A stretch of 63,200 nucleotides of DNA, counting the filler, from Perkinsus chesapeaki ATCC PRA-425 (lineage: Eukaryota; Protista; Perkinsozoa): the NCBI GenBank assembly GCA_013115145.1. It is 6 parts of 6 records of this genome, joined end to end, with 100 filler letters (N's around TTAATTAATTAA, not from the genome) between each part and the next. Parts side by side here need not be neighbours in the genome. Positions count along the whole stretch, not along the records: positions 1 to 25,439 come from JAAPAO010000526.1; positions 25,540 to 46,607 come from JAAPAO010000605.1; 4 more parts are not named here. The stretch is one strand, 5' to 3'. Of this stretch, positions 427-34,967 are shown in pieces. Position 1 is the stretch's first letter. Every line of letters begins with the position of its first letter. A program made the translations under genes and the position numbers. The notes under the pieces were generated by a model. It saw only the letters and a program-made list of their open reading frames with translations, was not told the DNA's origin and ran no database searches.

Positions 427-3400
427 TTGGATGGCAGTGTTGATATTTATACTCTTTGGGATCAAAAGTTGGCTCAATCGCTTACATTACCGGAGCCAAT
501 ATTGGCTATGGGGGCATCACCTGGTGAGGAGGGAGATACAGTTGAAGGAAGAGGAGGAAGGGTAATTGGGGGAAATCAAGCCCGTCTCTGTGCGGAGCGA
601 CGCGCGGATGTCGCCCAACTCGTGTCGTAGGCTTCAAAGAGCTTTAGAGAGTGTTACGGAGATACTTTCTGTGAGAGCGGTCATTGAAGTTGGTAGCTGG
701 AAAAGGATACCTTCGTGGGAATACTTTGTATGTAGAATATAATAGAATATTGTTACTGGGAGTACCGGTCATCTTAAGAGTGTATTTAGTTTGGCGGGCG
801 GCACGCATTCAATTTTTCGAGTTAGGCTTTGAAATTTTAGGCATAGGGGTTTTACACCATGATTACAAATGCATTGTATCGTTGTAGAGAAGCCGCTTTT
901 GTTGGCGTTGTCAGTTGTTGTTCTGTCGTTGTTTTCAGAAGCATGTGAGCCTTTGCTGCCTTGGGACGGCCTCGGGAGCGGTATATGGTTTGGTGCCGAT
1001 ACCATTTGATGTTCAATTAAGAAGGCTAATAGTTGGATTGAAGATAGAACCGGCATTTGACTTATTAAATGCGATGTATCCGCTGGGGGTAGTACCTGGG
1101 TCGTTTGGGAGAAAGACGAGAATGTTAACCTGTTGAGCTGTAGGGAGCTGGTGAGGGTAGAGCGAGAGCTATGGACCTGCTGCATAGGGACGCTGGATGG
1201 CAGTTGTTTTCTAATTTACAGTTCTCACAGGTGAGCGGGGAAGGGGGTTATTGAAGACGAGCTTGTTTGGAAGTTATTTGTATTAAAAATTAGTGATAGT
1301 AGTTGTGTTCATCAAAGTTGTTCTTTTATTTAATAAAGGATATCTCAAGACGTCTATCAAATGGGAGCCCGGTATGAACCGTCGAGATCGAACGGCGCCT
1401 TACGGACCAACACTGGCAGGCGAGGCGATTATTATTTACTATTATTACACGCAAATGAATCTGTGTGTAAATCAAAATATAATGTTCGACATAATAAATA
1501 CTTGTTATTATATTGTATAATAGTGAGGTGGTTTGAAAGATGCGGATGGGAGTGCTTGTTCTGCTTTAGGCGTATCAACATTTATCGTCTCTTCGTGACT
1601 GTGAGCTCGATTGGTGTAAATTATTGCATTTTTGGGAGTATCTTTTGCCGAAGGAGTGGCAGACGGATGTAGAGGGAAGTGCTTTGAAAGAGAGCAGTGT
1701 ATTTGAACCAGTGGAGTTATCAAGGTAATATCTGGAGGTTGAGCATGCAAGATACGAAATAGGTTAAGTTTAGGTCATGCACGATAAGTGTGTATATCTC
1801 CGAGAGGAAGGCCGATTTGATTACCAAAGGGACGCCTGTCGAGGCCAGTCAAGGAGAGCTTGTGAATCTCGCTGGTAATTGACATTGAAGATTAAATTTA
1901 TATTTTTTTCTCTTGTGCAGCACTCCTTCGAGCAGGCTGCCGGAATGCTGTCTAATATTTTTCATATGAAATGACATGGTACTTTTACTATATATATTTT
2001 TATCACTTTTAATTATTTATAGTGCAGCACTTCCCCTTTGGCCAGGCAGGCGAGTGTCACTATTTATTTTTCATACAAAATTGTCGGGGGGATGCATTTG
2101 AACTAAATGGCGTCGTCGTTATGGCGACAATAAGTAACAGCTGATCAGTTGTATGATACAGGTGATTAGTTTTTATTTGTTATCGATATAGCTCATATCG
2201 CTGTTGAACTTAATACTAGTAATACTAGCTTTGACTCTACTCCTCCCATGAAGCTCCTCGGATGTCCTTTATTTTTTCAGATAGGGCGACCGCCACCTTC
2301 CTGGCCTCTAATAGGGATCGAACGAATTCCCCGAAGATACAAAGAGCGGTTGATCTTGTCTTATTAGTGCTGCTTGTCGCTACAGGTAAGGCAAAAATTT
2401 CCGGAAATTTTTTGGAAAATTTTTGGATTTTTTCCCAGATGATCCGAGGTGGAGATTGTGGCTGAATCCAAATGGTCCTCAAGGCGCTGACGAGATCTTG
2501 AAATTACCGATCAATATCACACCGGAAGAATTTCGTGGCGCAGTGAAAAAATTACCTCAGCAACCCAGAGAGGCAAAGGAGGCTGGTGCATGGTTGATGG
2601 CAGCGGCCGCTGGTAGTCGTTGGGGAGGAGAAGCGTTAAGCCTGACGAGAAAATACTTACTGAGGATTGGAGTACGTTGTTAGTGTTGAGATGCAATAGA
2701 GTCGATCGAATAGATAGTAGATATTATTTTACAGAAGGATTTAAATGTGATGTTCCGCCGATTCCATCTGAATTTTTCTGGAGTGTTTGGAAAGCATATG
2801 GCAGCTTATGAATTTTATAAGATCGCGTGCGGTCATCGTTAGTGGGACTACGGTATCGTAGTACGGAACGGCACGGTGGACCGTAGAGTAAGCGCAAAGC
2901 AAATTTTACGGTGATCCGTAACCGTGATTTTGCCCATCTATAGCATAGCTCGATGCTCGGATCTTGTTGCTACTGTGGTTTAACTGATCAAGGTTTTGAG
3001 ATACCTTTCACTTGTAGAGATGCTCAATCGAAACAAAAGGCTGTAGCCAACAGGGCCCGTCCGAGTGATCGATTATTATAGCGGGTTCTTTTGTGCAGAT
3101 AAAAGTGGGGAGGAATCCTTGCGGGTGCGGGCATTATCGCAACTGGATGAGTGTCTGCCTGATAGTGCAGAGAGGCTTTTACAGAGTTTAGCGGAGGCGA
3201 GGAGGGCAGATCCAGAGAGATGGGGAGCAGAGAAGGAAAGGAGGTTTATAAAAAGCTTGGGGAGGTAGTAGGAGGATTGGTGTTTTTTGTGGAGGGGTCG
3301 ATTCTTCAGCTTATTATTGTCATAAGGGCTTTTGAGGTGTTTTTACTATATGCCGTAACGTGTTGCCGTTTCTGTAGTGGAGGTAGAGGGCAGCGCGGTT

Positions 3401-6167
3401 AGGAAGCAAAAGGTCCCTGGTTCGATTCCTGGCGGATACCATTGCTCTTAGTGATTTCGTCGCTGACTCCGCTATCCTTATGCACTCTGTTATCTATGTT
3501 GGCGAATAAATTGCAGAAAACTCTCCCAGTCGACTCCCCGTGGATAGCTAAGCCTCGGTACTGGCTAATTTATGACGCATCTTCTGCTAGGAGCTGCTTT
3601 GAGATCTGAGGGTTCTGATTAAGTCTATGTTGGTAAGAGAGTTAGGGCTCTTGAAATTACAGGTCTACTTCATCAATATGAGTTTATCTTGGCTAACTTA
3701 TTACTCGTCTTTGGCGCTCACTGCCAGGGTCTTTGGGATTCGAGTGTGTTGATTCAGATGTCTGGATTCACTGAGATCGGATGAGGGACGGTTTAAGCGT
3801 GCCAATGACAGTTGGATAGATCTGGTGTCATCTCTTTCGCCTGATACTGTCATACAGGATTTGGATCCATCACCGATGGTAGTGGGGCGGGGGCGGGGTG
3901 TGGACTAAATGATTGGAGTGACGGAAGATATGTTCGGTGCGGCGGGGAAGGTCATACCGTATTTTACTCTGATATACGAAATTGGTATTGGGTAGTCATG
4001 AAGCCGAACGTAACTGTATTTGGGATGGGAAGTTAGAGAATGATCACAGTGAAAGTTTCTGTGATGTATTTTTATTAAGAGGCTTTCTGTGAGGCCGAGG
4101 TGGGGGGAACTACTAATTAAAATAGTTATTTTAACTATATTACATTGACGTTGATACAATCATCTTGGATTTTTGTGAAAACCGGTGTTACGTTGGCGCG
4201 GGTTCGAATCCAGGTGGGGGTATTTCTCTGCTCTTTAGGTTCTTGAGCGATACTTAGTGAGGAAAATTGATGACGATTCGCAAAGTACAGAGGAGGAGAA
4301 AGTGGGTATGAGAACGCAGTTGGCGATATTATATACGAAGGTAGTACTGGAAATAGAACCGGGGACCTTTGGATTGTAAATATATAGACGCCGGCTCTAC
4401 GTGCTAAACTGCTGCCACTGCTAAAAAGCGATGAGAAACTGGATGCGGAGGCTGTATTGGACGGGTCGACTAGACTCGAACCTGTGGAGAGGATGGTAGT
4501 ATTTGAAATTAAATTGACGATAAAATCTGGGTTTTAGGCTTTACTGGGTCGAATGGGCCGACATAGGGACGCATTGCTGGAGTGCTTGGATAAAGGGGAG
4601 GAATACTGTGGAAATGATAAGGTGATATTTGGCGGGCCGCCGGGAGGGAGATCTGGCATCTGGAAAATGTTTTAAAAATGAACATCGATCGGGATTTTTA
4701 GAGCTAGTCGTTGAGTCAACTTTTAAGCCGATAGGCGTTCTCGGTTTAGGGTTTACTTATGTTGTACGTATCACTGCTATTGGAGTTATCGCGGACATCT
4801 GAAGCATTGGTAGTAGTTAATCGACATTATATAGACTTGGATCCGATGGAGGTATTGGATTTGTTACCGGATGATATGTTATTGGATGGTCAGGCATTGA
4901 GGTATGAAGGGGTGGAAATTGGGCTATTTTATATTTCTGTGTTCGGAAAAAAAGACTACTCTCTATGCTGATATATGGATGCTCTTCGGCCGTGTCATTT
5001 CTACAGTATCTTCTACAGTGTCATTTTATATTGTTTCACGATATACGGGCCTTAGCGAAGGTTACTATATCGGGCTTCCTATCCAAGCTGGCAGTATACT
5101 AGATGAAGCCAACGGGCCTAACTAGCTCGCCATCACTTTTTGAGAATATCTCTATTAAGGGATGTATGGGTGGGGCAGGATGCTATTAGGTTGAGAGGAT
5201 ACCGTGGATAAAGTATGCTCCACGCGAAATGCCCTTAATTGAAAATTAACGCCGAAAAGTTGCGGCCGGACGATCTCCGAGATTCGGGGCATGTGGGATT
5301 ACTCGGCGTGCCAAAGCTTTGGGCTCAGCACGCCGGGGACTCGCGTGAAGTATTCAATAACTTTTCAGCTTATGGGAAGCTTATGGCGTCCCTCCATTAT
5401 ACATTGCACAAGCTTAGGTGGATGAGATACCTCCAAAATTTCGAGAGGGACTAATTCAGACTGTAGATGAAGAATGATGGGCTAGTTCAGATAGAGCGAT
5501 TCCGCGGGGGGGGACTAGGCTACGTTAGTGCTTGTTGTTGATAGGCTTCCTTATGTCGTTCTTTGTTTTAGGTATCTTAGGTCGGCATGCGTATCAGCAC
5601 CGATCAGTAGTGAGGATACAGTTTTGGCTGCGGAAAAGATGACGGGGACGATGTTCTTGGATGAGTATTCGCGGTGGCAAAAGGAAAGGGGACGGTAATA
5701 TAAGGAGGGGCGCTACTGCAGGATTATTAATTATTTTGTTTGTATTATGAACAAAGTCTTATCGAGACGTATCGTATTACGACCTTTGTAAATGAATAGT
5801 TCTTGATAGTTAAAGGTGGAATAGTTAAAATTATCGATGGAGAGAATTTGTGATTTAATATCGTTATATGACACTGCCGTCCATAAAGATTTAGCTGAGT
5901 CGTGAAGTGTTGAACCTTTTCCCGAGTAAACTTGGGAATTCCGCTTAATAAGTGGCGCTTCATCCTATTCCTTGAAGGTACGTAGTGATGTCAGAAGAGA
6001 GAGCATGTCCAGTGTGCAATAGGAGATTTGTGGCGAGTGACGGAGAGGCGACAGCTAAGCCGTTCGTTGTGTACCCGAATAACGTGGTTGTTCACGTTCA
6101 GTGTGCTGATCCTAGTTTGAGTGTGTGCCCGGTGACGGGAGTGAAATTCAGTCCGACGTTAAAATGA
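427..6167 (+). CDS. Vps39/Vam6/TGFBRAP1-like vesicle-tethering subunit, many exons; 5' end uncertain and probably upstream
   Basis: Exon peptides include VDIYTLWDQKLAQSL (CNH-like), VLERYL, RAKLLPLLKS, ERM-ALLGRMGRHRDAL and LDPMEVLDLLPDDMLL. The C-terminus CPVCNRRF...FVVYPNNVVVHVQC resembles the Vps39_2 zinc-finger-like tail. GT-AG introns lie between exons. Confidence 0.75.
3368..3440 (+). pseudogene. tRNA-Val-like relic filling a ~97-nt intron (3355-3451)
   Basis: 73 nt, GTTTCTGTAGTG...AAAAGGTCCCTGGTTCGATTCCTGGCGGATACC. Acceptor stem pairs 6/7, T-stem 4/5, B-box intact; D and anticodon arms do not fold. Confidence 0.6.
4182..4222 (+). pseudogene. Possible tRNA 3'-half relic (B-box) in a 64-nt intron (4175-4238)
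   Basis: Perfect GGTTCGAATCC at 4201-4211 preceded by GGCGCG, as in Leu/Ser tRNAs; stems are poor. Confidence 0.35.
4349..4376 (-). pseudogene. Possible antisense tRNA T-arm relic in a 47-nt intron (4341-4387)
   Basis: Minus strand reads CAATCCAAAGGTCCCCGGTTCTATTTCC, resembling a tRNA variable loop plus T-arm with a mutated TTCGA. Confidence 0.3.
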
Positions 6168-6244
6168 CTGTTTCTATTGAAGAGGGGTTTAGTAGGAAAT
6201 TGGAGGGATGGAATTAAGTTGATTTTCTCACGCGCCACGTAATT

Positions 6245-9200
6245 ATGCTTGCGAGGAGCTGGTCGAGAGTGACTTGCCGAGGAGGGCTTTGTGTGGCGGG
6301 ACAATTGCGTTGGCATTCGCATGGGCATCTGCATGGAGGAGAGATGACAGGAGCTGAACTAACTGAGGAGTTGAAGGCGGATAGGCAGGCTGTAGTGGAA
6401 AGGACTAAACGGTGCTATAAAGGGGAGGGGTTGGGCACTATGTGATTCGCAGAAGGTTTGGCGATAAGATGGTATATTACCATCCCGTATACCATAGTTC
6501 ACCATTAATAAACAAAGTCTGTGAAATTCGAATGATTTATGTTAGACCCTAACAGCTAGAATAATATTTATATTTATTATTTTCCTTTTTTTCATTCTGA
6601 GCTACACTTTCTCCTGCAGGTCAGTGTGACTGTCTTGCCGCGACAGTCTTGTTAAGCAACATATCTGTTGCTGTACCTGAGAGGGGTAGAGTGTGATTCC
6701 TCCATATGGCGTTCTTTGTGTAAGAGTCTTGAGGCTGAGCTTTAAGCCTTAAGCTCAATGATCCGGGTAGCGAACCGGTCCGCTGCTCGATCTTAAAAAA
6801 ACCGCTCTACGAGAGCCGTAGGTCCTAGGGGCTGCCGCATACTTTTTGGCATACGATTTGAGAGTCGCTGCGAACGTTAGAGGGGCGAACCTAGTTCATC
6901 CGGCGAACAACCTTTATGGTTGAATCATATTGAAGAGAGGGACTTGGAAGCTTGGGAGGTTGGTATCGTCTCCATTTTAGTGTCCGTAAAGTGATGTCGC
7001 CGGAGGAGACAAAAGCATTGGTGATGCCATCGAGGCTGCCGGAGGATTTTATTGAGGAAACTTTAATACCGCACATGGAGAACTGCATTAGATTTAATAT
7101 AAAAGTATGTACTAAAGGGGAGGGTGGAGAATCTTTGGCAGCTGTTGTGGGCGGATTCAGAAATGGCAGAAGTGATTCGTATTCGGTGATGTAATGGATA
7201 TCGCTATTATAAATAGTGAGTTAATTATTATAAATTATAATATTGTTTACTGTGTATGATTTATATCGGCATTAAAATAACAATATCTATATAAAATAGA
7301 AGAAGCATTAGACAGTTGATAAATGATATAACAAAAAATGCTGTATCGTACGCCGCAACGATCGCATACGTCTACGTATGGAGAATGTCTATTTGATTGA
7401 ATAAGAAAGTATATGGTAGGAGGTGGGAGGTTTCGGGCCGAATAATAGCAGCTGGGCTACATGGGTTGGAATTTTCGACTTCAACTTCCAAAATCTTGAA
7501 TCAAAATAAGGGTCACTCCAATATAAGTAAAATGTAGATGTATACAGTGTAATAACGTAGGATAGTTTACACAACTGGACATATAATCTGCATACTGATA
7601 TCGGACATTCGATATGCTAGAACGGGTTCATTAAATCATTCAATTTGAATGGCCCTATATAACGTTACTTAATGCCACTTCAGCAGCCAGTGTGATGTCG
7701 TTTGGTAGTCGGATGAGAAAATATGGTATCATCTCTCAACGGATTGTGAAGGACGTGTTATCTTAGACGTACACGCCAGCCGAGCTCACTCAGCTAACCA
7801 GAGGATATGCGCTGTATACATATAGAAGAGATACGAGCGGGAACGGACCATTGATGGAGTATTTGGCTGAAATGATAAAGTCGAGGATGGTCGCTTTTAC
7901 GGCTATTGAGATCGTAATATTTTGGAGAGATGATTGTTGTTCGTCAGTGTGAGATCAGTCTGTGAAGGGGGATTATAGTGGGGATGATTATTAAATGATA
8001 TTACGATTCAAATTTATGTATAGCACGGCCTGACACAATAGAATTTAATAATAATAGTTGCCAGGAAGTGGTAACATTCGTGAATGAATGCTGTATAGAA
8101 ACGTAATTTCCAGGCAGTACGTGCTCTAAAAACGAGTAGAAGTAAGCCGCCGATTTAGGTTCGTTGGGAGTTTTCAGTATATCGACTTTGGCTGTCTCTA
8201 AAAACGTGACCTAACTCTGTGGCTCCCCTTAATTCAAATATCTTAGGTTGATATTCTACCAGCATGCCAGACTCTTTTTGAGAACGATACTGAACTGTTC
8301 GACATGTTAACTGAGAGGATCAAGGTTACCGGAAAAACTATTTTTTCTCAAAAAGTCGTATTTCCTAGGAAACCATCAACGACTATAGCGCATTAAACTT
8401 GATTGGTCTTGTCCGGACTTTCGCGCGCCGTGAAATTGATAAGAAGGAGACTAACCAAGGTTATCCTGTACGGGAGATACTCATACCGAGATTGAAGGAA
8501 GCTTTGGAGAGGTATTGTAGTGGGATGGAGTGAGCATATCTTTGTGGAGGCTCATATAGATACGATACTGCGGAGGTCTGCGATATCATAGTAGCAATTG
8601 CGGACTCGGCCGCTACGGATAAGACTATTAGTATGGATTTGCCGATAATGCAAAGTGTGCTGCCTGAACTAGAGCATAGGCTTGATGACTTGGGTGAGAC
8701 AATTCCGTTGGTGACGCATATTGCTGTGGCGTGGGCCCTGGCGAGGCTGGGAATCTACCATGAGGGGTATCTTGATCGAGTGGCTAAAATTATACACGAG
8801 AAGGAAAGTATAAGAAACGATATAACTCCTCGGTATTTGGTGAGGTTGATATGGATATACTGTAAGTGTGATGCGCTGGATAAGATTGTGGCGGATATAG
8901 GACCGGTTTTGGAGACAAGTGTGGGATATATGGGCGCAGCGCAGTTTGCGAGGTTGGCGCAATGCAGTCATCAAATGGAGAAGGTCAAGGATATTGTTGA
9001 TGTTCAGAGCATGGTGGATCGATTAGGCGATCGATTATGCAGCGAGCTTGTAGTTGGTATTGAAGATAACATTACGAATGTGAGCAAGCTCGGTACGGCA
9101 GACGCCTGCTATGTGCTGCTCGGTTTAATAGAATCTGGGACCATTGAGAAAGGCTTCGAGAGGCCGGTGGATGCCGATGGGAATTACTTGGCGTGGATGA

Positions 9201-9481
9201 AAGACGGATCGCGTTTGGGCCGCTTGTTGACGTATGTGCATAAATTCCAGGACGATTTCGAGGCGACTGAAATTCAGAAAATTATAAGAGTGTTGCATGT
9301 CATGCAAAAAGGAGCGTACAGAGAATATCTTGATTTGTTGCCTGCATCTTGGGAGTCGCAGAAGAAAGATACGCTTCATCGCATCGCGAAGAAAAAGGAA
9401 GTCGAGGAGAAGTTTTTGGTTGAAGAGGCTAAAAGAGAGAGGAAGGAGCAGGGATTTTTTAAGAGGGTTTTTGGGATGTGA
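6245..9481 (+). CDS. Mitochondrion-targeted helical-repeat protein (HPR/OPR/FASTK-like), multi-exon with a long last exon
   Basis: N-terminus MLARSWSRVTCRGG... is Arg/Ser-rich and lacks acidic residues, like a presequence. The long final open frame (8633-9481) has WALARLG and YLVRLIWIYCK helical-repeat-type motifs. Confidence 0.5.
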
Positions 9482-12400
9482 ATGTGATATGGCTTTTGGA
9501 CACGTTTCTGACTGACAGAAGTGTCGGCGATATTGTTGCGTTAGAGTGTTCATCCTTGGGGAGCGATCGATCTTATATTCTTGGTGCGCTAGTTGTCATA
9601 GATATCTTGTTGTGTAGGCTACACTCAGTCATGCAGTACAGCTGAGTGAGTTATTAATCATACTCCAAATAAGTCCTAAAATGAGAGGATACTACTAGTA
9701 TGATAATCATACTAGTAGTATGGTCTTCCACCATGTGGCTTGATAGTTAATCTATCATAGATTTGAATTTTATGACATTCCTACAGGAAGTATGTGTCTC
9801 GGAATCGGCCTGCTTCGAGTCTCACAGCTTGTTCAGCTGTTAAACTTTGACGAGCCTTGTTATTTCTTTTTTGCGCAGCCTGATCGGATCGTGGCCTCGG
9901 AGCCAGAGGGCTATGTTTAATCCCATCCCGTACTACTAGTACGGTACTGGGTCATGAATGATTCTCCATGCATCATTTTCTTGACTGAAAAGAATGATGC
10001 ATGGAGGTTCCAGAGAGTCTCCAGGAGGGAGACTGTTGCTGGGGCACGTACGACGCAGGCTACGGCGAACGCCATTCTATTAATTTGATAGAATCACGTT
10101 GATACCCACGGTAGAGACAGCGAGACGCTCTGATGCATCCTCGCAGGTTCCCATAACGGAAGCAACGCGCAACGAGATCCCATCTCATATAATGCTGGGA
10201 TTTGGATGAACCAAATTGGTTCTTCCCAAACTGGCCGCCAGTTCCTGACGGCTCGTCAAAGCAGATTACTTAATTATTGATGAGCAGCAAGAACAGCACC
10301 GGCGTGTTCAGCTCCATCATGTCGTGGAGCAGCTGGAGCTTAAACTACCCGTAATCTGAAGAATGATACAGGATGGCTCGAGTGCTATGAACGCTGCTGT
10401 TCGGCAGATTCACCCTACTTTGAGTCCGTCGTTACAAGCTGCTTCTTCCACTTGATGCAGGCGGTCAAATCGAAGAAGGGGTCAATGTCTATTCCGATGG
10501 ACACATGGCTGGGGTTCAAGTCGGACCTGAGGACAGTGATTCTCTCTAGCACAGTGCATGAGTTCAGTATCTTGTTTGCAGCCGCTATGTACCAGAATGG
10601 ACTCATTGGATCCAAAATTTGAACTGACAGCTCAAATTTTGAACTCCAAAATACTACCCCTCGGCTATCACACATTTCCCACGCGTGCGACCAAGAATGG
10701 GGCTCCAATCGACGTCTTGACTACAAACGTGTCTCATCTGAATGTTTCAATACTCACTGCAATTTGCAGTCTACAAAAAAGTCTCATGCTTATTCGCTTG
10801 TTCGATTTCACAAAGAGATCGTTGCCACCTGCGTTAGTGTAATTCTCAAAGCCTAGTTGGCTATAATGAGAACAAAAATTCTTCTGGACATAAAAATGGT
10901 TTACAGGAGTCTTGTGACAGGAGTCCTGTCACAGGACAGCAGTGCTATCACAGCACTTTCCCTCGAGGAAGTGATGTTCTGTGAGGGAATTACTTGACAG
11001 TACTGCCCGAGTTACCTGCCTTGCGGCGTGGGCCACGCCGCGTGGCTGATTGGATTATCGGCCCGCTATCATCGTGCTATAAAATTTATATACTCTCCTA
11101 CAGAACATTATCAACACTGAATGTGGGTGGGGATTTGTGCGTTCAGCTTTTTCTCGGAAACATTAGATTATATAATATTTATAGCACATAGAACAACTTA
11201 TAGAACTGAGAGATGTATATTTCATACGGTAGTTCTCTAATAGACTTTTTTGAAATTTACCGTATAAAGTATTTGAAATTCAACAATTTATGATCGGACT
11301 TTTCCATCTCTAGGCATCCCTATTAGGAAAAGATTTTCAGGGACGAAATTGAGGAGTGTTTTCAGATTCAGAACTTCTAAATTGTTTCATTGGTACTACT
11401 ATCCCAGGACGTATTTATTAAGGGTTATTATAAGGGTTTCCTGGGAGAAAAATACTACGTAACTGAAAGCTCTGATTCTCCATCATACAGTATAACTAGT
11501 GGGAAATGAATTTCCATCATGTAGCGGGAAATTTCCAGTATAAATATTTCGGCGATGTTACTCGTTGACCAGGTGATTGGTATCCCACCCTCATTCCAAA
11601 ACATAGTAGTACCACATTGCCACTGTAGCTTGTATTTCATTTGTCTCCTATGGGCAATAAAAGTCGTAACCGTAAATCGTCCAAGGGGATGGTATCGAAG
11701 CCAGATCTCGATGTTAACGAGCTAGCCAATGTAGGTGACTAGAGGGACACGGTGATTGGATCGACGTTGATATGACTTTGCAATGGCTCAATTGAGGATG
11801 GAGGTGATTGTAGCATAGCAGCTATGCTACAGCTATGCCATAGCTCCCAGTCAGTGCGGTGACTCACCGCCGGTGAGTTACAAACTAATATAGGCTGCAT
11901 GATACAGCCTGCATCCAATGATTCGATACATTCAACATTGACAATGTTACATTGTACTACAATGGTTGTAGTCCAACGCGAATGCATCATCCTTAGTATA
12001 AATCTTAGTGGCGATAGAAAACAGCAAATAGGGAAGAACAATCTGCCGAGTTTGATTTCACAAGATCAGATCTCCCTCGCTCTTCCGTGACGGATCTGAA
12101 CTTCGAATCATGGAAGTTCCGTGATTCGAGCTCCCGCTTCCATTGTTCGATTGTTCCATTGATAATATCAACCATTCGCCCGCAAGCTAGGTTAACAATT
12201 AATATCAACTTGATATTCTATAGCCAGTATTGATTAAATTCAGGTTCTCGCATCTTCCGGTGACGCTATCGCTTCAACGTCAACTACCGTTACTGATTAT
12301 GGTTATGATGGTGCTAAGCTGAATGTGCAGCTCATGCAAGGGTCAGTCGAGGTGCATCTTTGGTTGCCATATAATAGCGAAATTATTCAGACGCATATAT

Positions 12401-14176
12401 ATGTGATAACAAAATGTCCTGTCACACTGGGTATCGTAAATAATGCTCGTATATCTGCTCAAGCATCGTATGTTGAGATTCTCAACGCAATTCGGAATCT
12501 CCGGTCCCTGACGGTTCTAGGGAGGGGCACCTTGTTTGCAACACTCCTCAATGAAGGTTCTTCATCACATACCACATTGTAACAATATTATCGTAATTAT
12601 ATGTGAATGATCCGTGACTCACGGACCGTGAGTGATATGTACATTACATAAAAGTAATCCCCTCTCTCCTAAGGTTCTGTCTGGTCCCTTCTATCAATGA
12701 AACGTGTACATGAGCTGTGTTTTCAGATCCACCCGAAGAGTTTTATCGGCCCTAGGTGTCACTGCATCACGAGATCCTATACTGTTACGTCAAGCAATGG
12801 ACTTCATGAAAAGGTGAGATTCCATTTTGGGGGTGGAGGAACGTCTGGGTAATGAATGCTACTGACGACAAATTTAAAGCTTTACGGAGTTTTATGTCAA
12901 CTTAGCGGAATTCTGACGATCTTTGGAACCCTCGGCGCAGAAGAATAGTGATATTTCTTCGAGCGAATTCCGCGAAGACTTCGAAATCCCATCGTTATCA
13001 TCGCGACGTTCGTCATTTTGCCAACATTTAAGTTGAATGATCCAACTGGGACGGAATCTGCATACGGTGACAGTATCACTGTGTATTGGACCATCCAAGT
13101 TGGATACAACCGGTATACACATCGCAATGTTGGGAGTGATTCGACTTTCTTTGGAACGGACATCCCTCATTTCTGAGATGAGCGGTCGCTTGATCGAGGC
13201 GTTATGAAGGGCAACAGCCAGTGCATCCATTACCGAGGACTCTTCATTAGCCACTTCAAGTGGCAAGTGGCCCACTTGGTCATGGGAGGCATCACGTGTG
13301 GGCATCGGCGTCCCTCTGGTTGAGAACGGAGATTGTTGGCCTTTGTTTGCAAGAGAACCATTCGATTTGGGAGAACCAGATCACATAAGATAGCCGGGAG
13401 AGCATCCGGTCTTGAAGCCCGGGTTTTCTCCAGTAATTAACGGGTTCAAACTCCGTTGATGGCACGGTTTGTCAAACCGTTGGACAAAAATCGTTTTCTT
13501 TGTGTTACGCCCTTGCCAAGAGCGCCTTGGTAAATCGTCCGTGAGCGATCTTTACCGGATTTCTCTAGTCTTGACCTACAACCACTAGAGAACTCCTTCG
13601 CGGTATTCAAGAAGAGATCCTTGCGAGGTCCACATCCGGGGAGCTACGATGAACTGAGAAGTAGAGCCATTGTAGCTCTAGACTAGTTGAACAAGGATGG
13701 GTATTGCACATAGCTGACATAATTTCGCACATGCTGCCAATAATGCATTGATGGTGGTGGGATTATGTTCCGTTACAAGTGGCCATGGTGGTCTTCGTTG
13801 GGGGTTTCCTGGTGCACGGTGCTTCGTGTTCAACCAGATGAGCAAAATTTTAGAAACTCGCACTTGGCGAGAAAAGCGTTCGATGAGTGAAGGCTCGCCC
13901 GATTCTGAATTCATTGCTACCTTGCAGCCCTCGAAATTCGTTCGCGTTGAAGAGAGACCCTGGCCCTGGGGAATTAACATTTTTTTAAGTGTTTTTTTCG
14001 GTGGCGTGCCTACCTGTCATTCGATAGATCTTTTAATTGGCGATCGAGTGGTGTCTAATTCATCGGACTGTGTAAGTGGTAAATCAATGAAATCTTCCTT
14101 GGACAACTCTTGCGGCCGGGTATGTTGCAATCTGTATCCATTTTATATTTTTTAACATCTCAAGACGCAGAGTTAG

Positions 14177-15449: not shown

Positions 15450-15569
15450 TTAATATTAGTAGTATAATTATTCGTAGATATTTATTATATTATAATAATT
15501 AGAATTATGCTATAATCTTAGACCTTCTTGTATTACTAATACGGTATCAGGTATTGCCACATTGGGGGG

Positions 15570-24734: not shown

Positions 24735-24868
24735 GTTTCGTTGATGGATGATTACTGCAGACTGCAGTTCACAACTGCATCTGCGTGTTGAATTCATTAC
24801 CGTTGTGGAAGACAGTTGTGTGATTTGTTGATACGTTAATTGGATTTGTGGTTTTTAGGATTTGCCGG
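24735..24868 (+). repeat. Orphan copy 2 of the PP2C intron/exon junction
   Basis: Aligns to 20108-20234, with a 7-nt tandem duplication (ACTGCAG) and a few substitutions. Confidence 0.9.
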
Positions 24869-25195: not shown

Positions 25196-25267
25196 GCCGC
25201 TTTAGCTTAGTGGTAGAGCGTCTGCTTCGTAAGCAGAAGGTCGTCAGCTCAATCCTGGCAATTGGCT
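25196..25267 (+). tRNA. tRNA-Thr(CGU), probably damaged
   Basis: 4 differences from the UGU copy, including T-loop GCTCAAT (instead of GTTCAAT) and an acceptor-stem mismatch. Confidence 0.7.
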
Positions 25268-25366
25268 AGCCCCTTATTACCGGTCAATACAATTGAAAAT
25301 GGACAAGCCACGTAGGTTACTCAGTCCTATACAGGTATGGGTGGTTTTCATCTTGTTTTATTTTCA

Positions 25367-25438
25367 GCCACTTTAGCTTAGTGGTAGAGCGTCTGCTTTG
25401 TAAGCAGAAGGTCGTCAGTTCAATCCTGGCAAGTGGCT
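25367..25438 (+). tRNA. tRNA-Thr(UGU)
   Basis: Complete cloverleaf, anticodon arm TCTGC-TTTGTAA-GCAGA; contig ends immediately after. Confidence 0.93.
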
Positions 25439-25439: not shown

Positions 25440-25539
25440 NNNNNNNNNNNNNNNNNNNNNNNNNNNNNNNNNNNNNNNNNNNNTTAATTAATTAANNNNN
25501 NNNNNNNNNNNNNNNNNNNNNNNNNNNNNNNNNNNNNNN
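25440..25539. other. Assembly linker (44 N + TTAATTAATTAA + 44 N)
   Basis: Identical 100-bp structure occurs five times; the 12-mer gives stops in all six frames. Confidence 0.98.
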
Positions 25540-26185: not shown

Positions 26186-27270
26186 ATGAAGCCGCGTATA
26201 ACTATAGGGATAGATATGACCCCAATATAACAGGTGAAACGAGATGTTATAGTGGGAAAAATAATTCCTCTTCATGAGTAGGTAAAAATAATAGAAGGAA
26301 TAGTTTGGAAAAAACAAGGGAAATTTGTTAAGTACATTCATATTAAAATTGCTGAGGGCAGCTTTGTTTAGGAATCCAATTTCGAATGATAATTATTGAA
26401 ACCTGGCCGACTAGTAGATATGATATTTTGATAAAACTAATATTTCTTTAGGATGCGAATACGTAGGGATTTATTTCAGGAACGTCTCTGCATTATCGCG
26501 GAAAAGTTTTCGATGTTGATGAAGATATCAGACAAGTCTGGCCACCTAGAGGGGAAAGATATTCCCTTGTTACCTCGGATATAGAGGGAGCTACACCGAG
26601 GCCATGGAAGGGTATCTTAGCTTCAAGCGAGGATGATACATATTAGGTTGAGATGAGCTAATAGGTCCGGCGAGGAAGAGTGGTCTTTGCTCACCAAGAC
26701 GGCTTCGAGGAAGGAAATCTGATGCTAGCAGTTCTTGTAGTCGAAGTAATAGGGTGCATGTCTTATGTTGTTTTTACATAGTAATGGAAAAAGACTTCTA
26801 AAGATTAGGCTCCATTTTATTAGCTTTTATTTGCAACATGCATAACATCACGACATTGACAACACTTTGGAGACCCTTACTCGTACTTCGCTTCATCTGG
26901 TTGATTGTGCCGGTTGATATAGCGTTGAACACTACAAGCTTAAATTCATGCTGGCGAGCTGTTTCTAAATGAAATTCCCTCCTAATTAAATTAAACATCT
27001 CTTCAACCTTTATTCTACTAAATGTTATAATAATACCGTTATTCTACTATATCTTATAATGATAGCATCATTTCGTCTGTAGGTACCAAAAGCTCAGACA
27101 CTTCATCAGAATGTCGTATTAGTTATTATAATCCACAGTTAACTCTACATGGTAGGAAGTTATTAGAAGATAGCGGTCGATATGAACCGGGAGAATATAT
27201 AAGGATTGGAAAAAAAGGTTATAGGAGGGGATGGTCGGCATGGGAGAATAACCGTTTGAGGGGCTACTAG
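26186..27270 (+). CDS. Hypothetical multi-exon protein
   Basis: Short open exons with GT-AG borders, ending ...GWSAWENNRLRGY-stop; family not recognised. Confidence 0.3.
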
Positions 27271-27989
27271 GGTAACGTTTGAATGTTAAAGATAAGTGTG
27301 TCGGGCCTAGTTACCGACCGAGCAAGATGAGTCAGGCTGCTAATTGATACTTCGATCCTTTTGGAAGGTCTGAATTCGAATATTAAGTCTTTGTTACTTA
27401 TCACCACAGACAGAATGGGCATATCAGTAATGGGCGTGCCCTTCCGAATCGGCGTATAAATCTTCCCTGCTGGGCAGTATAAGATCCGACAGTGAAATAT
27501 TTTTTACGTACTTGAGTGCCGATTACGGATTAGTTTAGCCTCATCGACGTAGGTTAAATGCTTGTTGTAACGCTTCGTAATGCTTGGGTAATATATACTA
27601 TATGCTTGATGCTTTTTGTGGATGAATGATAGGTTCATATATTTATATTAGTATTAAATAAGTTATAATGATACTATATATAACATGTTAATAAATTATA
27701 ACTAGTAATAATAAGTATTCCTAATTCAATAATATTAATAGTATTATAATATTAAATACACTTATAAATAGATAATCATATGAATTTCACAGGCTATAGC
27801 AAGTTGGACGTGGTCAAATCTCCGCGCAAAATGGCACATCGAAGGCGTTTTCCTAGGAATCATATCTACCCCTGTTCGTAGTTAACATTCGTTACTATTT
27901 CTCTCCACTGCCCCTTGCACGTACGCCCAAGCATGTATACCGTAATACCCTTGATGCGTATGCTTCGTAGTTAGTATATATTATACTAA

Positions 27990-29290
27990 AGTGTGAGCCA
28001 TCTTATAAATTGGCCGCTTGAACGCTTTTATTTGGGGTTAGCGGTGCCGATGATCTGTTGCGTTTTGGTAGGTCACGTCGAAGATAGTTATTTTGTTAAT
28101 CCGAATTTGGATAGTCGGAGATCGGCTCGTGTGATGGGGGATTTAAGCCGAAGTTATGTACCTTCAATTAAGAGCGATGATGTTGATAAAATATGCAATA
28201 GGAGACGGACGTATCTTAGGTGGGTATATAATGCACGCATCAAGTAAAGATTCTTTAGTCCGCGGGCAATGGCTGACGACATGTATAACACAGAGAGTGG
28301 AATTAGCACAAGAATTGTCTCCCCACCTAGTTGTATTAAATCCGTACCGAGGCCTCCACTATCAGCACCATTGCATTCTAGAAGAGGTAAAATACCGGTG
28401 CTGGGAATCGAAGCCGGGATTGATGAGCAGGTCGGAGGTATCTTGGTGGAAGGGAGAATGGAGAGAGAGCTGTACAGGAGGCATTTATGGGACCACCTGG
28501 ACGGTTTCAAGGTAACTGTGATGTTGAAATTAGGGTGTTGGTAAAACTCGTGATATAGCTGTTTTTGTCTGAGGACAGCAATTTTCTGTAAGCTTTTTTA
28601 TGGTGAGCTGATGAGGGAACCGTGGATCGGACCTGCGGAGGAGCGTAGATGCTGCAGGTCATATTACTTACGGAGATAGGATCTAAGCAATCTTAGATGT
28701 TATGTGGAGGGTCGGGTATTTAATGAATTCACGGCGACTCCGCTCCCTTCAGTCCGATGGGGCGTGGTGACACTGATGAAATGAAAATCTTGATGCGGTT
28801 TTCGCATCGTTCCTCGGTAGATGAAGGATGTGCTCACTAAGCTAATCAGGCAGCTCAAGTGGGGGTGCTCCTTAATTTCAACATTACTATTATATTTGAT
28901 TTGTTTATTGACATTATAAATTCGATACCTACAATGCAGACTGGAAAATCATTCATTTTTTAAATTTCCATCAATTCATATTTTTAAAGTCGAATAATGT
29001 TAGTTTTATGTTAGAGACAGCGATGGACGGTTATACCAGACGAAGTGGTCGAAGGATAGTACCACCACTTAGGATACCGGACAGGGAAGTTTTATCGGAA
29101 CGAGGCAGTGGTAATATGGTGTAGTGGTGGAATTCGAGGCTGTTTATCGTAAGGGTGTGGGTACGATCCCTTCAGGTGTCAAAAAGAATATTGGGTTTCT
29201 GTCTGAGCGCAAGAAGACCTATTCAAGGCTGAGATTTGCTGATGATAGAGTGCGGTGCGCACAGCTTGATAATCCACGTTACTGGAATTC
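27990..29290 (+). CDS. Hypothetical multi-exon protein
   Basis: Open segments at 28060-28210 and 28269-28510 with splice-like borders; no recognised motif. Confidence 0.25.
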
Positions 29291-29607
29291 ATGATGTTGT
29301 TCATGTTGTTGTGGGAACTATTAACAGCTAGAGGTGTCCGAAAAAGGAACAGTTTTGTGTTATAAGTGATGAACCGGGCTCGGGAAGCGTATAAAGGGGG
29401 CGTATAAAGAATGCATGTTTTGGATCTATGAAAATGAAAGTTGGATTATTAGTAAATATATTCCCCCAAAGATTCTGGTCTCCTTAAATATTCCTTTTCT
29501 CATCAGCAATTTAGTTTGTGTTATACGATTCTTGTGAGAAGAAGGTCTATATCAAAATTTTGTAATATATCTCCTTTCCCTTGTGTGAGTTGTATTATTA
29601 CCAATAA

Positions 29608-32600
29608 ATGGGGCCACTGCGAAACCGCAAAAGGAAGCATCAACGGCAAGCAGCTAGTAATAAGAAAAGGAGGCTGAGCGAAGGTGATGAGGGATGAGGG
29701 CTGCGGGGAAAGTTACTGTCAAGTGTTGGGGAAATGAGCAATTGTCTATTAACCCAGAGTGGATTTTGAAGCAACCTGGTTGGCCAGGTCGGATGGTGAT
29801 AGTACTGGATGGAAAGTATTCTGACTCGGGTAGAGTCTATATCATGTTAATGGTATAGACGGTAGGCTTTACTGAGAATATGTCTTATGGGGGGGGTACA
29901 TTCTGTACCGAGCCCACAAAAGATATAGCTAGGATTCGTCAGAGTCCGGTCAGCCTGTTGGTCTGAACTAAAAGGTGTTTCTTAGTTTCATAAGATCATG
30001 CTATTTAAGAATATAATATACTGTATATTAAGATAGATTATATATTATATAGATAATATATGTAGACTCTTTATTGCAGTTGTACAGTGTGGCCCAAGCT
30101 GTTATGCAAATCAGTTTTTTCGTCGTAACTTTTCCATTTCGACTAATTTGAAACTTATCACAACTATGTAATTATAATTAAATAATCTTCTATGGAAGAT
30201 TCCCAATCACCCTCCGTGGTTCCGGCTGTGAAAGCTCTGGAACTTGCACTCTCGCAGGCATGACGAGCTTGGCGCTATCTCAGATCCGGTTGAGTCCAGC
30301 CCGATGTCAGATGCTGATGCAGAAGTGAAGTACTGGGAGAAAAAATTAGGTCTTGACGGAGGTAATGCGCATGCGTGCAAGTCATACCACACTTTTGTTT
30401 AATCGCAGATAATGCTGACAAGGTTAAAGAGGAGTTCATCAAGGACGGATGGGATGAGGATTTCTTCAAGTCGCTGGATGATATTGATGACGCTGTCAAG
30501 GAACGGAAAAAGGAACTCAAGGCCGAGCATGAAGGAGAAGGTAGTGGACCCCCGGCGGGGGGCTAACTTAGTTTTATGGCATAAACTTTATTTATCATAT
30601 ATTGCAGGTAGTGAAGAGGAAGATGGTGATGCTAGTGATGGTAATGGGGGGCATTGGTGGTCTATGGACGAGCATACAGTGGGAATGAATCTCGTGCATT
30701 TTATTCAGCTAGGGTGTTTACTCGAACTCGAATTTCCTATCAAGCTGCGTATCTTATCTCTCCGAAACCGTAATAGGCTTCTACGAGGCATGATGGATCT
30801 TTGCCTGATACTGTTCGATATAGGTGTGTCAGATTTGCAAGAAGAAGAAGGAGAAGAGGACTCTGCTGATGAAGAAGTTAAATATTGGGAGCACAAGCTG
30901 GGGATTGACAGTATGTCGGCTTGGCGGTGGGTGGCTTAAGATACGGCTGCGCGATATAGTGGATTATTCGGGCCGAAGATGAAAAAGAAACCCTGAAGGT
31001 GTATATAGCGCGAAGTGTTCTATTGCTTTCTATTTTTTATATTTCCACTCTTTTCCGAGAAAATTCTCGCGGAAGTGGCCTACCGGCCTCAACGCCACTT
31101 GGGAGACGATAGGTCCCGAGTTCAATTCTCGGCCAGCCCTTATCTCTCTTCAGAAAACCGTCAAAAAGTTATGGACGAACTAGAAAAGGACGGCCTTGAT
31201 CCAGACCTCTTCGCTGCGCTGGATGGTATCGAAGATGCTGTTAACAATCGCAAGACGGAACTGAACGGGGACGCTGATGCCCCTACAAAGGCGAAGACCG
31301 CGCATGAAGGTAAGATACGCATAGTTTAGTGGTGCTGAAATGTACTTGAGCTTTGGGAGGGAATTTTGGAAAGATTTCCGTGGTTTGGTCAACCCGCTAC
31401 GTCTACCTGTCTCAATTCTAGCTTTAAAGGTTCGCTATCGTCTAACTTCCGATGGGAGAGGTCGTCCGGCCGCGAACGGGAGAGGTTGGAGAAAAACTCG
31501 GGGGAATTTCTGCAGTCTAAGGATTTCTTTAGAGCGCTGTATGTGTTGTGGTGATTCAATGAGGAAATCTAAGGGCTGTAGACCTCAAAGTTGAAGGCTA
31601 AAAGAGGGAAGGGATTACGGTGTGGCCAAAGTAACTGAATTTAAATAATAAATCTTGCGATTCTTTTGTCTTTATGGAACTATATCTAAAAATGCTATGA
31701 GTAGTGAAATATAGTATTTTTGTCAGCCTCTGAGCCAGCGGAGAAGAAACCGTCGACCGCTACTGGAGCGTATGTGCCTCCTCATCTGCGACAGACGAAA
31801 AAAAGAAATACCGAGGATGAAGAACGCGCCATGAAATTAAGCAAGATTAGAGGTTTAGTGAACAAGCTAAGTGAGGGCAACATCGAGCTCATCACCGCCG
31901 AAGTGGTGGCCTTGCTCGGAGGGGGCGACCAGAGCGTGACCGAAGGATACGCTCGCGAGTTCGTTGAAAGTGCTATTGGTAATCCGCATATTTCTTTGAC
32001 GTTGCTGGGCACGTACTGCGCGCATTTGGTGGCTGTCACAATGATCTGCGGAGGTGGTCCGCTGGCGATGACGCTCGAGCTGATTGGGAAGTTCGTCAGG
32101 GGAACGCTCCCGATGGTTTCGGATGATTCTTCGGGGAATAGCAAAGCGAAGATCAGCAATTGCTGTAAAGTGATCGCACTGCTGTTCACATTTGGGATAA
32201 TCAGTCCGAATGTCGTCATCGATTTGATAAGGGGTATCTTTGAGCCGAACGACATGCACAGACTCGACCTGGTCCTGGTGGTGCTGAGGTTTGCTGGGAG
32301 AAAGTTGAGGAAGGATAATTTGCAGGATTTCTCAGCGGTCTTGGAGTTGCTCACGAAAGATTCTAAGGAGGTCGAGAAGGAAGCGAGCGGGAAGTACCAA
32401 TTCTTGCTTCGCGAGCTGGAGGACCTGAAGAACAACAAAGTCAATTTTACTGCGTTATCTCATTTCGAGGCGAATTTCGGATGGCTGAAGGCGTCAAATC
32501 TTCTGAGGGGTCGAGGGACTCCCGAGGACTCCCTGGTGCAAGTCCCGATGAACATCTTTGACGAGGACCAAGTCGCGCAGGTTGAAGGTTCGCAATGGTG

Positions 32601-33409
32601 GAGAGGACTTGGCTCCTCCCGCATTGTTAAGGTGGACAGCATGAGAAAGTCTGCTGATGAAGATAACGAACGATTGCTTGAATTGGCGGCGAAAATGAAG
32701 ATGAACACTGATTTGCGAAGGTCTATTTTCATCGCTCTTATGGGTGCCGAGGACTATAAGCATGCTGTTTTCCGTATTGGTCAGGTGATCGGATCTCGGC
32801 CAAAGTTGGTGCCGCAGGTGGCTGTTGTTTTGTTGCACTGTGCGATCCATGAAAGTGCGTTCAATCGCTACTACTGCAGAGTCGCCAAGGCCTTGACCGA
32901 GCTTCCCGGCACGTGGGGCTCTCGGTACTCTCACGCGTTGAAAAATGCTTTGACGAAGCTCCTCCAGCAGTGTCACACTTATCCGGTGAGGAGGGTCGGC
33001 ATTCTGGCCAAAGTGTCAGCGTTTATGGTATCGGAAGGCATCGCCGACATGACTATTTTGCGATTCTTGGACTTCACCAAAGCAGAAACCGACGAAGGTC
33101 GCGCCAAAATTGATGTGCTCATTCGCGAGATGATTCTCGAGTTGATCGAGCTCCAAGGAGATGACGCCCCGAAGATGTTCTATTGCGTTGGCAAATACAA
33201 TGATTTGCGGCAAGGATTGGGAACAATGGTAAACAACACCTTGCGCACGCGTGTACGTTTCTTGTGTTATCTGTCCCGCTATTCAGGTTCGTTCTATGGT
33301 TATTCCTAAACTATCCGGTGATAAGCAATCTCACGGGAAAGCCATCATTGCGGCGCTGGAAGAGTGCAAAGAGGATGCAGATGATGATGAAGATGACCTC
33401 GATTTCTAA
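29608..33409 (+). CDS. NOM1: Nucleolar MIF4G/MA3-domain protein NOM1/Sgd1
   Basis: Basic first exon MGPLRNRKRK. Long exon 31720-33252 has GAYVPPHLR, GLVNKLSEGNI, MNTDLRRSIFIALMGAEDYKHA and CAIHESAFNRYY. Last exon ends EDADDDEDDLDF-stop. Confidence 0.9.
31095..31140 (+). pseudogene. tRNA-Pro-like relic in a NOM1 intron
   Basis: CACTTGGGAGACGATAGGTCCCGAGTTCAATTCTCGGCCAGCCCT: perfect T-arm CCGAG-TTCAATT-CTCGG, a TGG triplet at about the anticodon position and a Pro-like 3' acceptor strand. 3' splice AG at 31152-31153. Confidence 0.6.
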
Positions 33410-33631
33410 CATTGGTCGCTTGTACCACAACGTACTTACTGAAACGTTTCTACTATTTCAAATTGCTGCGGTGTCAGTAAAAGTCCACCGGTGATGGGAA
33501 ATGACAATGAAAACCTTGCAGTCACGCACATGTCATCAACTTGAAAGAACTCAAATCATACGACAAGTGTAAATAACGACAATCAAAAGATACGGCATGT
33601 CATCTATTAAAAAGCACCATGAAGGGCATTC

Positions 33632-34967
33632 CTACTGTAACCATGCACCTGGAGACCGATCCTGTAATGTCGACCATATCTAACCTTACTTGATTCCATT
33701 TTGTCCCTCGAGATATTTTCTCTAGTGCAATACTCTTGTACTGTCCTGGGCCAGGGTTCTTACCGAGGGCTCTGAGGAAAAGCAAAAGTCGCTACCCGGA
33801 TTTGAACCGGGGTTGTCACGGCCACAACGTGACGTCCTAACCACTAGACGATAGCGACTCCGAAGGAATGTGGTTTTTGGTCATTACTTCGCTATTTTGT
33901 CAGTTCTCTTGTCCTTGGACCAGACAGGTCGTGGCTCTGCCACAGTCGTCAGCAAGTCCCCTTTCGAAATATCATAGTGCCCCGGGCCGGGTATCTACAC
34001 ACAGCCAATGATCCCAAGTGGCAGGTTCGATTCCTGCCTGTGTCTTTTTTATCGGGCCTTTCGATTCCGTCTTCTTTGTCGTCATAATAGGCGCTGGTAA
34101 ATGAGTTTTCCCCGTCCGCAATGAGGTGATGCTGTACCTATTTTACTCGCAAAATAGGGGTTAGCTACGGTACGCTGCCTACTTGTTCGGGGCTGGAATT
34201 GTCGCACCGAATTTAATCGCTTTGTCGAGGAACGATTTCTTGGCTTTCTTGCTCATCGGTCCCCCGAGGCATCTGCACTCAACTGTTCACAAATCGAAGA
34301 AGCTTAACAAGTACCAACCTAGGCTTGACCAAATCAACCTTGGTAATGTCATATTTCCCCGGTGCTGGTGTCGCGGATCCTTTATCCGTTTTTATTATAC
34401 CGCCTACTTTCCCGTCCGCAATCAACTCAGCAACTCCACCTTACCTTTATCCCGACTTCCCTTGTCGAATTTGTACCCTTTACTGCCATGAGAGAACTCT
34501 TCACCAGGAGGATATTGCGGCCATGGTGCGTGCCTATCGTCGCGGGAAATAATCCTAATTAGATGTGAATTTCGCACTTGATATATTTTCCGGGGCCGGG
34601 TGTGCTGCCTGCTAGTTTTTTAATTTGACCTATACGAGAGGTCACTTGCCCGCTGTCCTTCGGCAACGCCCCTGAAGTTCGGTCACCCTTGATGGGAGGG
34701 ATGGAAGCTTTTACCTCCTTTTACTTTCCCTGCTAGGCCGTGTTTGGGGACCTCGTAATCACCGAGATCATATTTTCCGGTCATAATGACAGAGAAAACT
34801 GTACGAAGGAATGCCACCAATACAGCCCACCGAGCTATATGAATGAAATCAACGATGCGATCTCGTTTGAAATACTGGGGTACTTGATTCCCTTGCACCA
34901 TTCTGCAATGGGCCCCAAAAAGTTGCAGGTCGTTCGAGAAATGGGATATTGCTGGGATCGACGACAT
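33632..34967 (-). CDS. SHIPPO/STPG/ODF3-type PGP-repeat protein, about 9-10 small exons
   Basis: Spliced translation gives GKYD, TPAPGKYD, IPAPNKY, IPGPGHY and NPGPGQY repeats with phase-compatible introns. Confidence 0.75.
33787..33858 (-). tRNA. tRNA-His(GUG), sense strand inside a 116-nt SHIPPO-gene intron (33772-33887)
   Basis: GTCGCTATCGTCTAGTGGTTAGGACGTCACGTTGTGGCCGTGACAACCCCGGTTCAAATCCGGGTAGCGACT; full cloverleaf followed by a T-run. Confidence 0.93.
33999..34050 (+). pseudogene. Internally deleted tRNA-like element (acceptor stem, perfect T-arm, T6)
   Basis: ACACAG-16 nt-GCAGG TTCGATT CCTGC-CTGTGT-C-TTTTTT; CCAATG and GCAGGTTCGA.TCCTGCC recall tRNA-Arg. Confidence 0.6.

Follow-up and report, generated by a model that had tools for sequence, protein, structure and literature searches.

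The DNA analyzed here is a window of 63,200 nucleotides (nt) from Perkinsus chesapeaki ATCC PRA-425, which parasitizes clams (assembly GCA_013115145.1), assembled from several contigs with linkers of N between them, in which intact and decayed copies of tRNA genes lie within, or overlap the ends of, spliceosomal introns. The host genes are a Vps39-like gene, a PP2C gene, NOM1 and a SHIPPO-repeat gene, which fall on two separate contigs as noted in a preliminary description of the window. A protein named as that of P. chesapeaki shares 99% identity with the large exon of NOM1, compared with 74-75% for P. marinus as well as P. olseni. NCBI models of two further genes map to the window exactly or match it.

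Intact tRNA genes within introns

The window contains four tRNA genes according to both ARAGORN and Rfam: Ile(TAT), His(GTG) and an intergenic Thr pair. Their positions and those of the introns that house two of them are:

33787-33858, minus strand: intact tRNA-His(GTG), sense to its host (ARAGORN, Rfam)
33772-33887, minus strand: intron 7 of the SHIPPO-repeat gene, 116 nt, in a 252-amino acid frame matching P. olseni P0007
20352-20424, minus strand: intact tRNA-Ile(TAT), antisense to its host (ARAGORN, Rfam)
20342-20480, plus strand: PP2C intron, 139 nt, splitting the motif KFIVIASDG after KFI
25196-25438, plus strand: tandem intergenic tRNA-Thr pair at a contig end, missed in the preliminary description

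The His and Ile genes each possess a full cloverleaf with anticodon, A-box and B-box. Splicing of the His intron produces the 252-amino acid open SHIPPO frame and removal of the Ile intron gives a continuous PP2C domain from the third modelled exon onward, in agreement with the original placement of these two intact genes, in sense and antisense orientation, respectively, in the SHIPPO and PP2C introns. The His host intron consists of the 72-nt tRNA and a further 44 nt, and the terminator run of four T residues (T4) begins the pyrimidine tract of the intron. The 3′ end of tRNA-Ile is positioned 10 nt from the donor, with only three T residues after the gene. P. olseni models P0013-P0015 and P0017 stop or gain residues near the His-intron site, as expected of read-through. 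Exact matches to tRNA-His numbered zero in viral and metagenome contigs. The Thr pair comprises a CGT copy (25196-25267) and a TGT copy (25367-25438) with a spacing of 171 nt. The two are 88% alike with their flanks; the CGT copy has an altered T-loop and no T-run, and the contig ends at the TGT copy.

Decayed tRNA copies and splice sites

Copies that have lost part of the tRNA structure, referred to here as relics or, when of full length, as shells, were located with their introns as follows:

33998-34050, plus strand: internally deleted tRNA relic with a T6 run; acceptor stem 6/7 pairs, T-arm 5/5
33995-34037, minus strand: SHIPPO intron 6, 43 nt, GC-AG, protein-based model
29110-29181, plus strand: full-length decayed Asn-like tRNA shell, missed in the preliminary description, coinciding with the following intron
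29111-29175, plus strand: modelled intron, 65 nt, NCBI model
3368-3440, plus strand: full-length decayed tRNA shell, 73 nt, sense in the Vps39-like gene; candidate AG at 3450-3451
30911-31153, plus strand: intron of NOM1, 243 nt, removed by splicing in RNA-like contigs that come from one study (two samples)
31095-31140, plus strand: tRNA 3′ fragment in sense orientation, with a perfect T-arm (31111-31132) and the acceptor 3′ strand
28387-28430, plus strand: modelled intron, 44 nt, with an antisense T-arm, 3′ strand and T4 run at 28389-28422
4193-4214, plus strand: weak T-arm/B-box relic in modelled intron 3879-4238, which ends 24 nt further on
4341-4387, plus strand: modelled intron, 47 nt, with a weak antisense variable-loop/T-arm relic (4347-4368, minus strand)

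Under the gene models, the donor of SHIPPO intron 6 is predicted to consist of tRNA bases, as are the two splice sites of the intron at 29111-29175. The relic at 33998 is antisense to the SHIPPO gene. The GC donor of intron 6 is the antisense of the relic T-stem, and the AG is just upstream of the first base of the relic. The element at 33998-34045 scored 25.8 bits, a value reached in none of 100 shuffles of the window, with a covariance-model expectation value (E) of 0.11. The 252-amino acid SHIPPO frame requires the GC donor, the P. olseni protein joins KKTQ to V and that of P. marinus KKPQ to V, and the P. chesapeaki NCBI model FOL47_009033 (33610-34783) skips both exons that flank this donor. 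Among annotated introns of P. marinus, GC/GA donors account for 0.7% and the median length is 49 nt (PMC7789003). The preliminary description had recorded an internally deleted, Arg-like element at 33999 within this intron. The relic itself is real, but it straddles the exon edge and so is not wholly intronic: positions 34038-34050, which comprise the acceptor 3′ strand and the T6 run, belong to the exon and encode KKTQ on the minus strand. The Arg label is unproven: the T-arm motif, which occurred in tRNAs at at least 87 of the 123 loci listed, was in tRNA-Arg for a part of them (at least 24 of the 90 tRNAs listed). Searches for orthologous DNA, with the SHIPPO alignment in metagenomes and with P0003 in viral contigs, gave no confirmed locus for the intron at 33995-34037 or that at 29111-29175.

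In the shell at 29110-29181, an A-box is followed by a B-box at the canonical distance (E 0.03 across the window, local p 3e-4), and a run of nine bases matches the anticodon arm of two Asn tRNAs exactly. The donor GT of the modelled intron corresponds to nucleotides 2-3 of the tRNA and the acceptor AG to the two bases after the T-stem. This intron and that at 28387-28430 were bridged by alignment of a second, diverged copy of the genome, which the DNA runs contain and to which some RNA-like contigs belong as well. Exons of the second copy are ~85-88% identical to the window (800-20799 and 26464-29193), with 33 differences per 250 bases in one example; long introns are mostly unalignable. Five PP2C introns, visible as joints, are kept in this copy, which is useful as a built-in outgroup. 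P. chesapeaki is presumably polyploid.

The shell at 3368-3440 was recovered with E of 5e-5 and 3e-5 by two covariance models. It has 6 of 7 acceptor pairs and 4 of 5 T-stem pairs (10 of 12 kept), and the D and anticodon arms are gone at unchanged length; the predicted fold differs from an acceptor plus T-arm fold. The earlier report of a decayed full-length shell at this site is thereby upheld, but its assignment as Val is unproven: best matches in phage records were mostly tRNA-Asn, with non-significant E, and the T-arm 21-mer had no matches in viral contigs. The intron originally drawn around the shell, 3355-3451, fares less well, as the NCBI model has 3265-3757 instead and excision of 3355-3451 leads to an in-frame stop in phase 0. 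Enumeration of exons in the vicinity produced 286 chains, among which an exon start at 3403 is allowed. In the second genome copy, the alignment skips 199 nt and resumes at 3404-3432, which is the T-arm part of the shell only. Support for the Vps39 name is weak (Pfam TPR_Vps41, E 0.032, below the cut-off) and comparison with solved structures gave no confirmation. NCBI model FOL47_008316 (869-9478) seems to fuse two genes, of which the Vps39-like gene is one.

The NOM1 relic combines a perfect T-arm with an acceptor stem of 3/7 pairs and ends 11 nt before the AG. Its T-arm gave an E of 0.011 with a covariance model built from the four tRNAs of the window only; a second model, R2, includes the 22-mer at 31111 and its E was not used for this relic. 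The 22-mer was inside a tRNA called by ARAGORN at 24 of 29 viral loci, all 24 of which are Thr(TGT). Thus, the tRNA 3′ fragment reported at 31095 is real, whereas its designation as a Pro 3′ half is unproven. The further claim that the element makes up most of a short intron does not apply to NOM1, in which the RNA-like contigs define an intron of 243 nt and the relic occupies a fifth. These contigs derive from runs X6 and X7, which are RNA by guess and not by record. NOM1 is the sole host intron with RNA support: the contigs do not cover the Vps39-like, PP2C or SHIPPO exons and are silent on splicing there. P. marinus-type models P0002 and P0021 read through at this position, as if the intron were present there too. 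One such P. marinus peptide includes VRS, which a T-loop could encode, but was discarded as evidence because such dipeptides are common. The NCBI model of NOM1 (28074-33406) skips an exon seen in RNA (29627-29683) and adds upstream exons.

The remaining relics are weaker. In the intron at 28387-28430 the donor GT abuts the antisense T4 run, and the T-arm (28401-28422), missed in the preliminary description, has an E of 1.2 across the window and p of 0.004 within the intron. Remnants first noted at 4182 and 4349 are at chance level window-wide (E 0.32 for 4193, 4.4 for 4347), but have p of 0.002 and 0.006, respectively, within their introns. No tRNA match was found in phage records for 4347 or 28401, comparison of the relics with phage records by blastn gave E near 1 or above only, and an Rfam scan yielded no relic at E ≤1. 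The relics at 3368, 31111 and 33998 may resemble eukaryotic Val, Pro and Arg tRNAs, respectively. Consensus T-loops, with B-boxes outside intact tRNA genes, are carried at 3411, 31111, 34016 and 4193.

Concentration of tRNA sequences in introns

A T-arm score was trained on 39 tRNAs, which included the four in the window and excluded those with either search motif. Seven matches of ≥21.8 bits were found across the window compared with none in 100 shuffles, and correspond to the four tRNAs and three relics. The T-arms of these relics (3411, 31111 and 34016) scored 25.8-30 bits, above all 100 shuffles. A catalogue of 48 introns (12.1 kb) was compiled, of which 9 were supported by RNA, 23 were taken from NCBI models, 8 were guided by orthologues and 8 by PP2C motifs; some long catalogued introns conceal exons. 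Each sequence was compared with its own dinucleotide shuffles (500 for introns, 300 for exons, 100 for tiles outside these) at a cut-off of p ≤0.01. Of the 48 introns, 11 scored above their shuffles, as did 1 of the 41 exons and 3 of the 178 tiles outside, an excess in introns with a Fisher p of 1.7e-6 that persisted at 0.0018 when the five strong elements were removed. Enrichment of introns over exons and outside tiles holds within this window, with intact and decayed tRNA copies in roughly one in five of the introns mapped.

Placement of the elements was also polarized. Sense relics end 9-14 nt before the AG, in keeping with the proximity to the 3′ splice site that was described initially, and antisense T-arms end 0-18 nt from the donor. 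Use of the T-loop A as a branch point was not significant: the pattern YTRAY occurred in 0 of 9 relic introns and 12 of 39 others (p 0.09).

Highly repeated tRNA genes as a probable source

The His and Ile tRNA genes are clearly highly repeated, and relic bins are near background depth. DNA depth in the His bin was 6941 compared with 82-108 in adjacent bins in run X2, and 3055 compared with 33-35 in run X4 of the same sample; the Ile bin had a depth of 671 compared with 46. These depths are not equal to copy number. Among the listed contigs that contain further copies of the His gene, most diverge right at the ends of the tRNA or no more than a few bases away. The loose-end consensus of these copies (33785; 3-4 contigs, agreement <0.6) ends in the same short word and T-run as the exon part of the 33998 relic (34038-34050). 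The P. marinus assembly has >500 genes of five tRNA types (Kojima and Jurka; PMC3706591).

None of the elements has an encoded CCA after the discriminator. The longest word shared between flanks is 4-6 nt, and the repeats of ≥22 nt that were listed include no terminal inverted or direct repeats of the relics. Neither the window nor the depth of the relic bins gave any sign of a relic family in multiple copies. The lack of CCA and of flanking words longer than 4-6 nt points to copies of genes or pre-tRNAs rather than of mature tRNAs, a short interspersed nuclear element (SINE) or an introner.

Origin of the intronic tRNA sequences

The presence of tRNA copies in about one-fifth of the introns mapped, together with two small predicted introns that are nearly nothing but a tRNA copy, makes it likely that intron sequence in the Perkinsus lineage has repeatedly been derived from tRNA genes, a source that is apparently undescribed. 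The account that we favor, to which we assign about an even chance, is that copies of tRNA genes have inserted repeatedly, survived inside introns or as introns with tRNA ends serving as splice signals, and then decayed. Copies would land in protein genes repeatedly from the very numerous Perkinsus tRNA genes, with copying perhaps at the level of DNA or pre-tRNA, for example by templated break repair. They would persist when inside an intron or when supplying its splice signals, which tRNA ends could lend. Decay would then trim the intron towards ~45 nt, sparing the end that bears the signals, usually the T-arm and terminator, and some introns may have been rebuilt from, or created by, a tRNA copy. 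Repeated insertion, one of two options raised in the preliminary description, fits the several isotypes, the occurrence of both orientations, the lack of CCA and the very high tRNA copy number. A bolder version, that tRNA genes give rise to new spliceosomal introns, is tentative and in our judgment rather improbable. Here the anatomy of the tRNA would provide the donor (from the 5′ GGT, the T-stem or the reversed terminator), the acceptor and the pyrimidine tract, the introns at 29111-29175 and 33995-34037 would have been gained in this way, and the whole genome would be expected to hold hundreds to thousands of others. Such an intron-making route is consistent with the two modelled introns whose splice sites are within tRNA-derived sequence, but the NOM1 and His introns appear to be shared.

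Several observations weigh against the favored account. Judged from the read-through models, P. marinus seems to have the NOM1 intron too and P. olseni the His intron, and at least these two host introns are therefore old; in size, the His intron resembles an intron of modal length (44 nt) to which a 72-nt tRNA has been added. The two introns with tRNA-derived splice sites are drawn from protein models. The shell at 29110 has a modest covariance-model E (0.29), and the stretch of exon completing the 33998 relic encodes residues conserved in the P. olseni protein, so that the match is either very old or partly chance. Any relic in an intron of 43-65 nt must lie near a splice site. Introns 11731-12243 and 20016-20224, both among the 11 that passed the cut-off, scored weakly at 80-107 nt from the 3′ site, off the polarity described above, and were not counted as relics. 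The intron excess may be inflated by selection of the window for its tRNA-intron pattern, by exclusion of the Thr pair from the control tiles and inclusion of unmodelled genes in them, and by the breakage of assemblies at tRNA arrays.

The strongest competitor, although improbable, is that tRNA genes entered existing introns as passengers and decayed neutrally, with the overlap with splice sites reflecting tiny introns and detection based on the B-box. This gives a good account of the His and Ile genes: the division of the His intron into 72 and 44 nt fits an insertion into an ordinary intron, 17 of 48 introns being 39-49 nt, and host introns appear common to other species and to the second genome copy. 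Introns hold 44% of the tRNA genes of C. elegans, the share expected by chance (PMC4999229). However, neutral passengers do not explain a rare GC donor exactly at a T-stem junction, an intron with both ends inside one tRNA shell, or why 12 kb of introns should contain three strong relics when the remaining window has none.

Kept function, the other option in the preliminary description, is less probable still, with hints from sequence only. B-boxes might be retained as TFIIIC sites with boundary or chromatin roles, or acceptor plus T-arm folds might act as splicing aids or as substrates of RNase P and RNase Z. Known tRNA-like substrates of these enzymes, of the mascRNA type, have the acceptor plus T-arm fold. 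Retention of the top half of the 3368 shell at constant length, alignment of its T-arm part alone in the diverged second copy, the perfect NOM1 T-arm beside a degraded acceptor stem, and the occurrence of both orientations, as a DNA site permits, are all compatible with function, and in human cells tRNA folds located in introns can enhance splicing (PMC7722341). Conversely, several boxes are broken (4347, 28401, 29163 and the first Thr copy), none of eight folded relic stretches is more stable than shuffles (z -1.4 to +1.7), detection by the B-box favors kept boxes, and the 29 aligned nt of the 3368 shell could be coding given the possible exon start at 3403.

Spread of one mobile family, either a tRNA-derived SINE or an introner, as ready-made introns is very improbable and largely refuted. 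Introners are present in the related Amoebophrya (PMC7789003) and the Vps39-like intron 1725-1773 holds a multi-copy element, but the relics share generic T-arm letters only, differ in isotype and extent, have background depth, and lack a shared body, tail or terminal repeats. The 49-nt intron in question contains a 42-nt element that is not tRNA-like, at which 11 DNA contigs begin at 1729 and stop at 1764 or 1770, their flanks being unrelated. The element occurs once in the window, is ungapped in the second genome copy, and may be introner-like or encode a small RNA. Finally, that all relics other than the two intact genes are chance matches is scarcely credible: window-wide E of 0.3-4.4 for 4193, 4347 and 28401, the last two of which lack a tRNA match in phage records, would allow chance for any single weak relic, but weak matches are still concentrated in introns and the scores at 3411, 31111 and 34016 refute it for these three.

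Other features of the window

The 3′ half and acceptor of PP2C intron 5 (20108-20234) are duplicated 4.6 kb downstream (24735-24868) with 94% identity. Two near-perfect hairpins of 29-30 bp are present in non-coding DNA (36773-36833 and 22984-23042). The contig at 46708-53048 differs from the rest in a guanine-plus-cytosine (GC) content of ~20% and strong negative GC skew. Positions 43975-46607 on the minus strand contain a long Ser/Thr-rich open frame with repeated cysteine modules that is mucin-like by eye, and 38263-39100 contains a frameshifted multi-copy gene with raised DNA depth and many variant contigs, which we take to be esterase-like by motif.

Comparison with known systems

The source of new intron sequence is known in few lineages and is mostly transposon-like introners. 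If a housekeeping RNA family feeds introns in Perkinsus, the tRNA fold would be a built-in ruler of origin and age, and intron gain could be distinguished from replacement across four sequenced species and two genome copies. Retention of B-boxes would imply many intragenic TFIIIC sites, with a bearing on chromatin organization at the base of the dinoflagellate line. Should the relics be debris only, they would still warn that Perkinsus gene models miss exons with GC donors and that tRNA counts include intronic relics. A literature search found no description of tRNA-derived introns in Perkinsus, within a coverage that omitted most subscription literature and supplements that may bear on the question.

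Intronic tRNA genes of Caenorhabditis (PMC4999229) are likewise nested, intact genes for RNA polymerase III (Pol III) in both orientations, as are the His and Ile genes here. The intronic share in Caenorhabditis matches chance, whereas in this window the tRNA often takes up at least half of a tiny intron, there are more relics than intact genes, and some splice sites are predicted to consist of tRNA bases. The SINE intron of rice catalase A and intronization of Alu (PMC2394776) also involve Pol III-type inserts that give splice signals, with a T-run as pyrimidine tract; unlike introns made from SINEs, the Perkinsus relics have no SINE family, body, tail or target-site repeats, and their source looks like tRNA genes. 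Introners of Amoebophrya, Micromonas and Aureococcus (PMC7789003) resemble the relics in that an intron is almost wholly one inserted unit, but here neither near-identical intron families nor terminal inverted or direct repeats were seen, and the intron positions appear old and shared. Extra TFIIIC (ETC) sites of budding yeast (PMC3395662) similarly carry B-box-like sequence without a working tRNA gene; unlike the relics, they are intergenic, and binding of TFIIIC together with a conserved 3′ extension of 10 bases defines them. The nimtRNAs (PMC7722341) are tRNA-derived intron sequences that possibly affect splicing, as might be the case here, but they keep the cloverleaf, which the relics have lost, and are mitochondrial; Perkinsus mitochondrial DNA encodes no tRNA (PMC9550989). 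A precedent for the source is within the genus itself. In P. marinus, amplified tRNA genes are targets of Dada transposons (PMC3706591), and although the available parts of that study do not mention introns of protein genes, these amplified genes are the same kind of pool that would feed tRNA insertions into the introns of P. chesapeaki.

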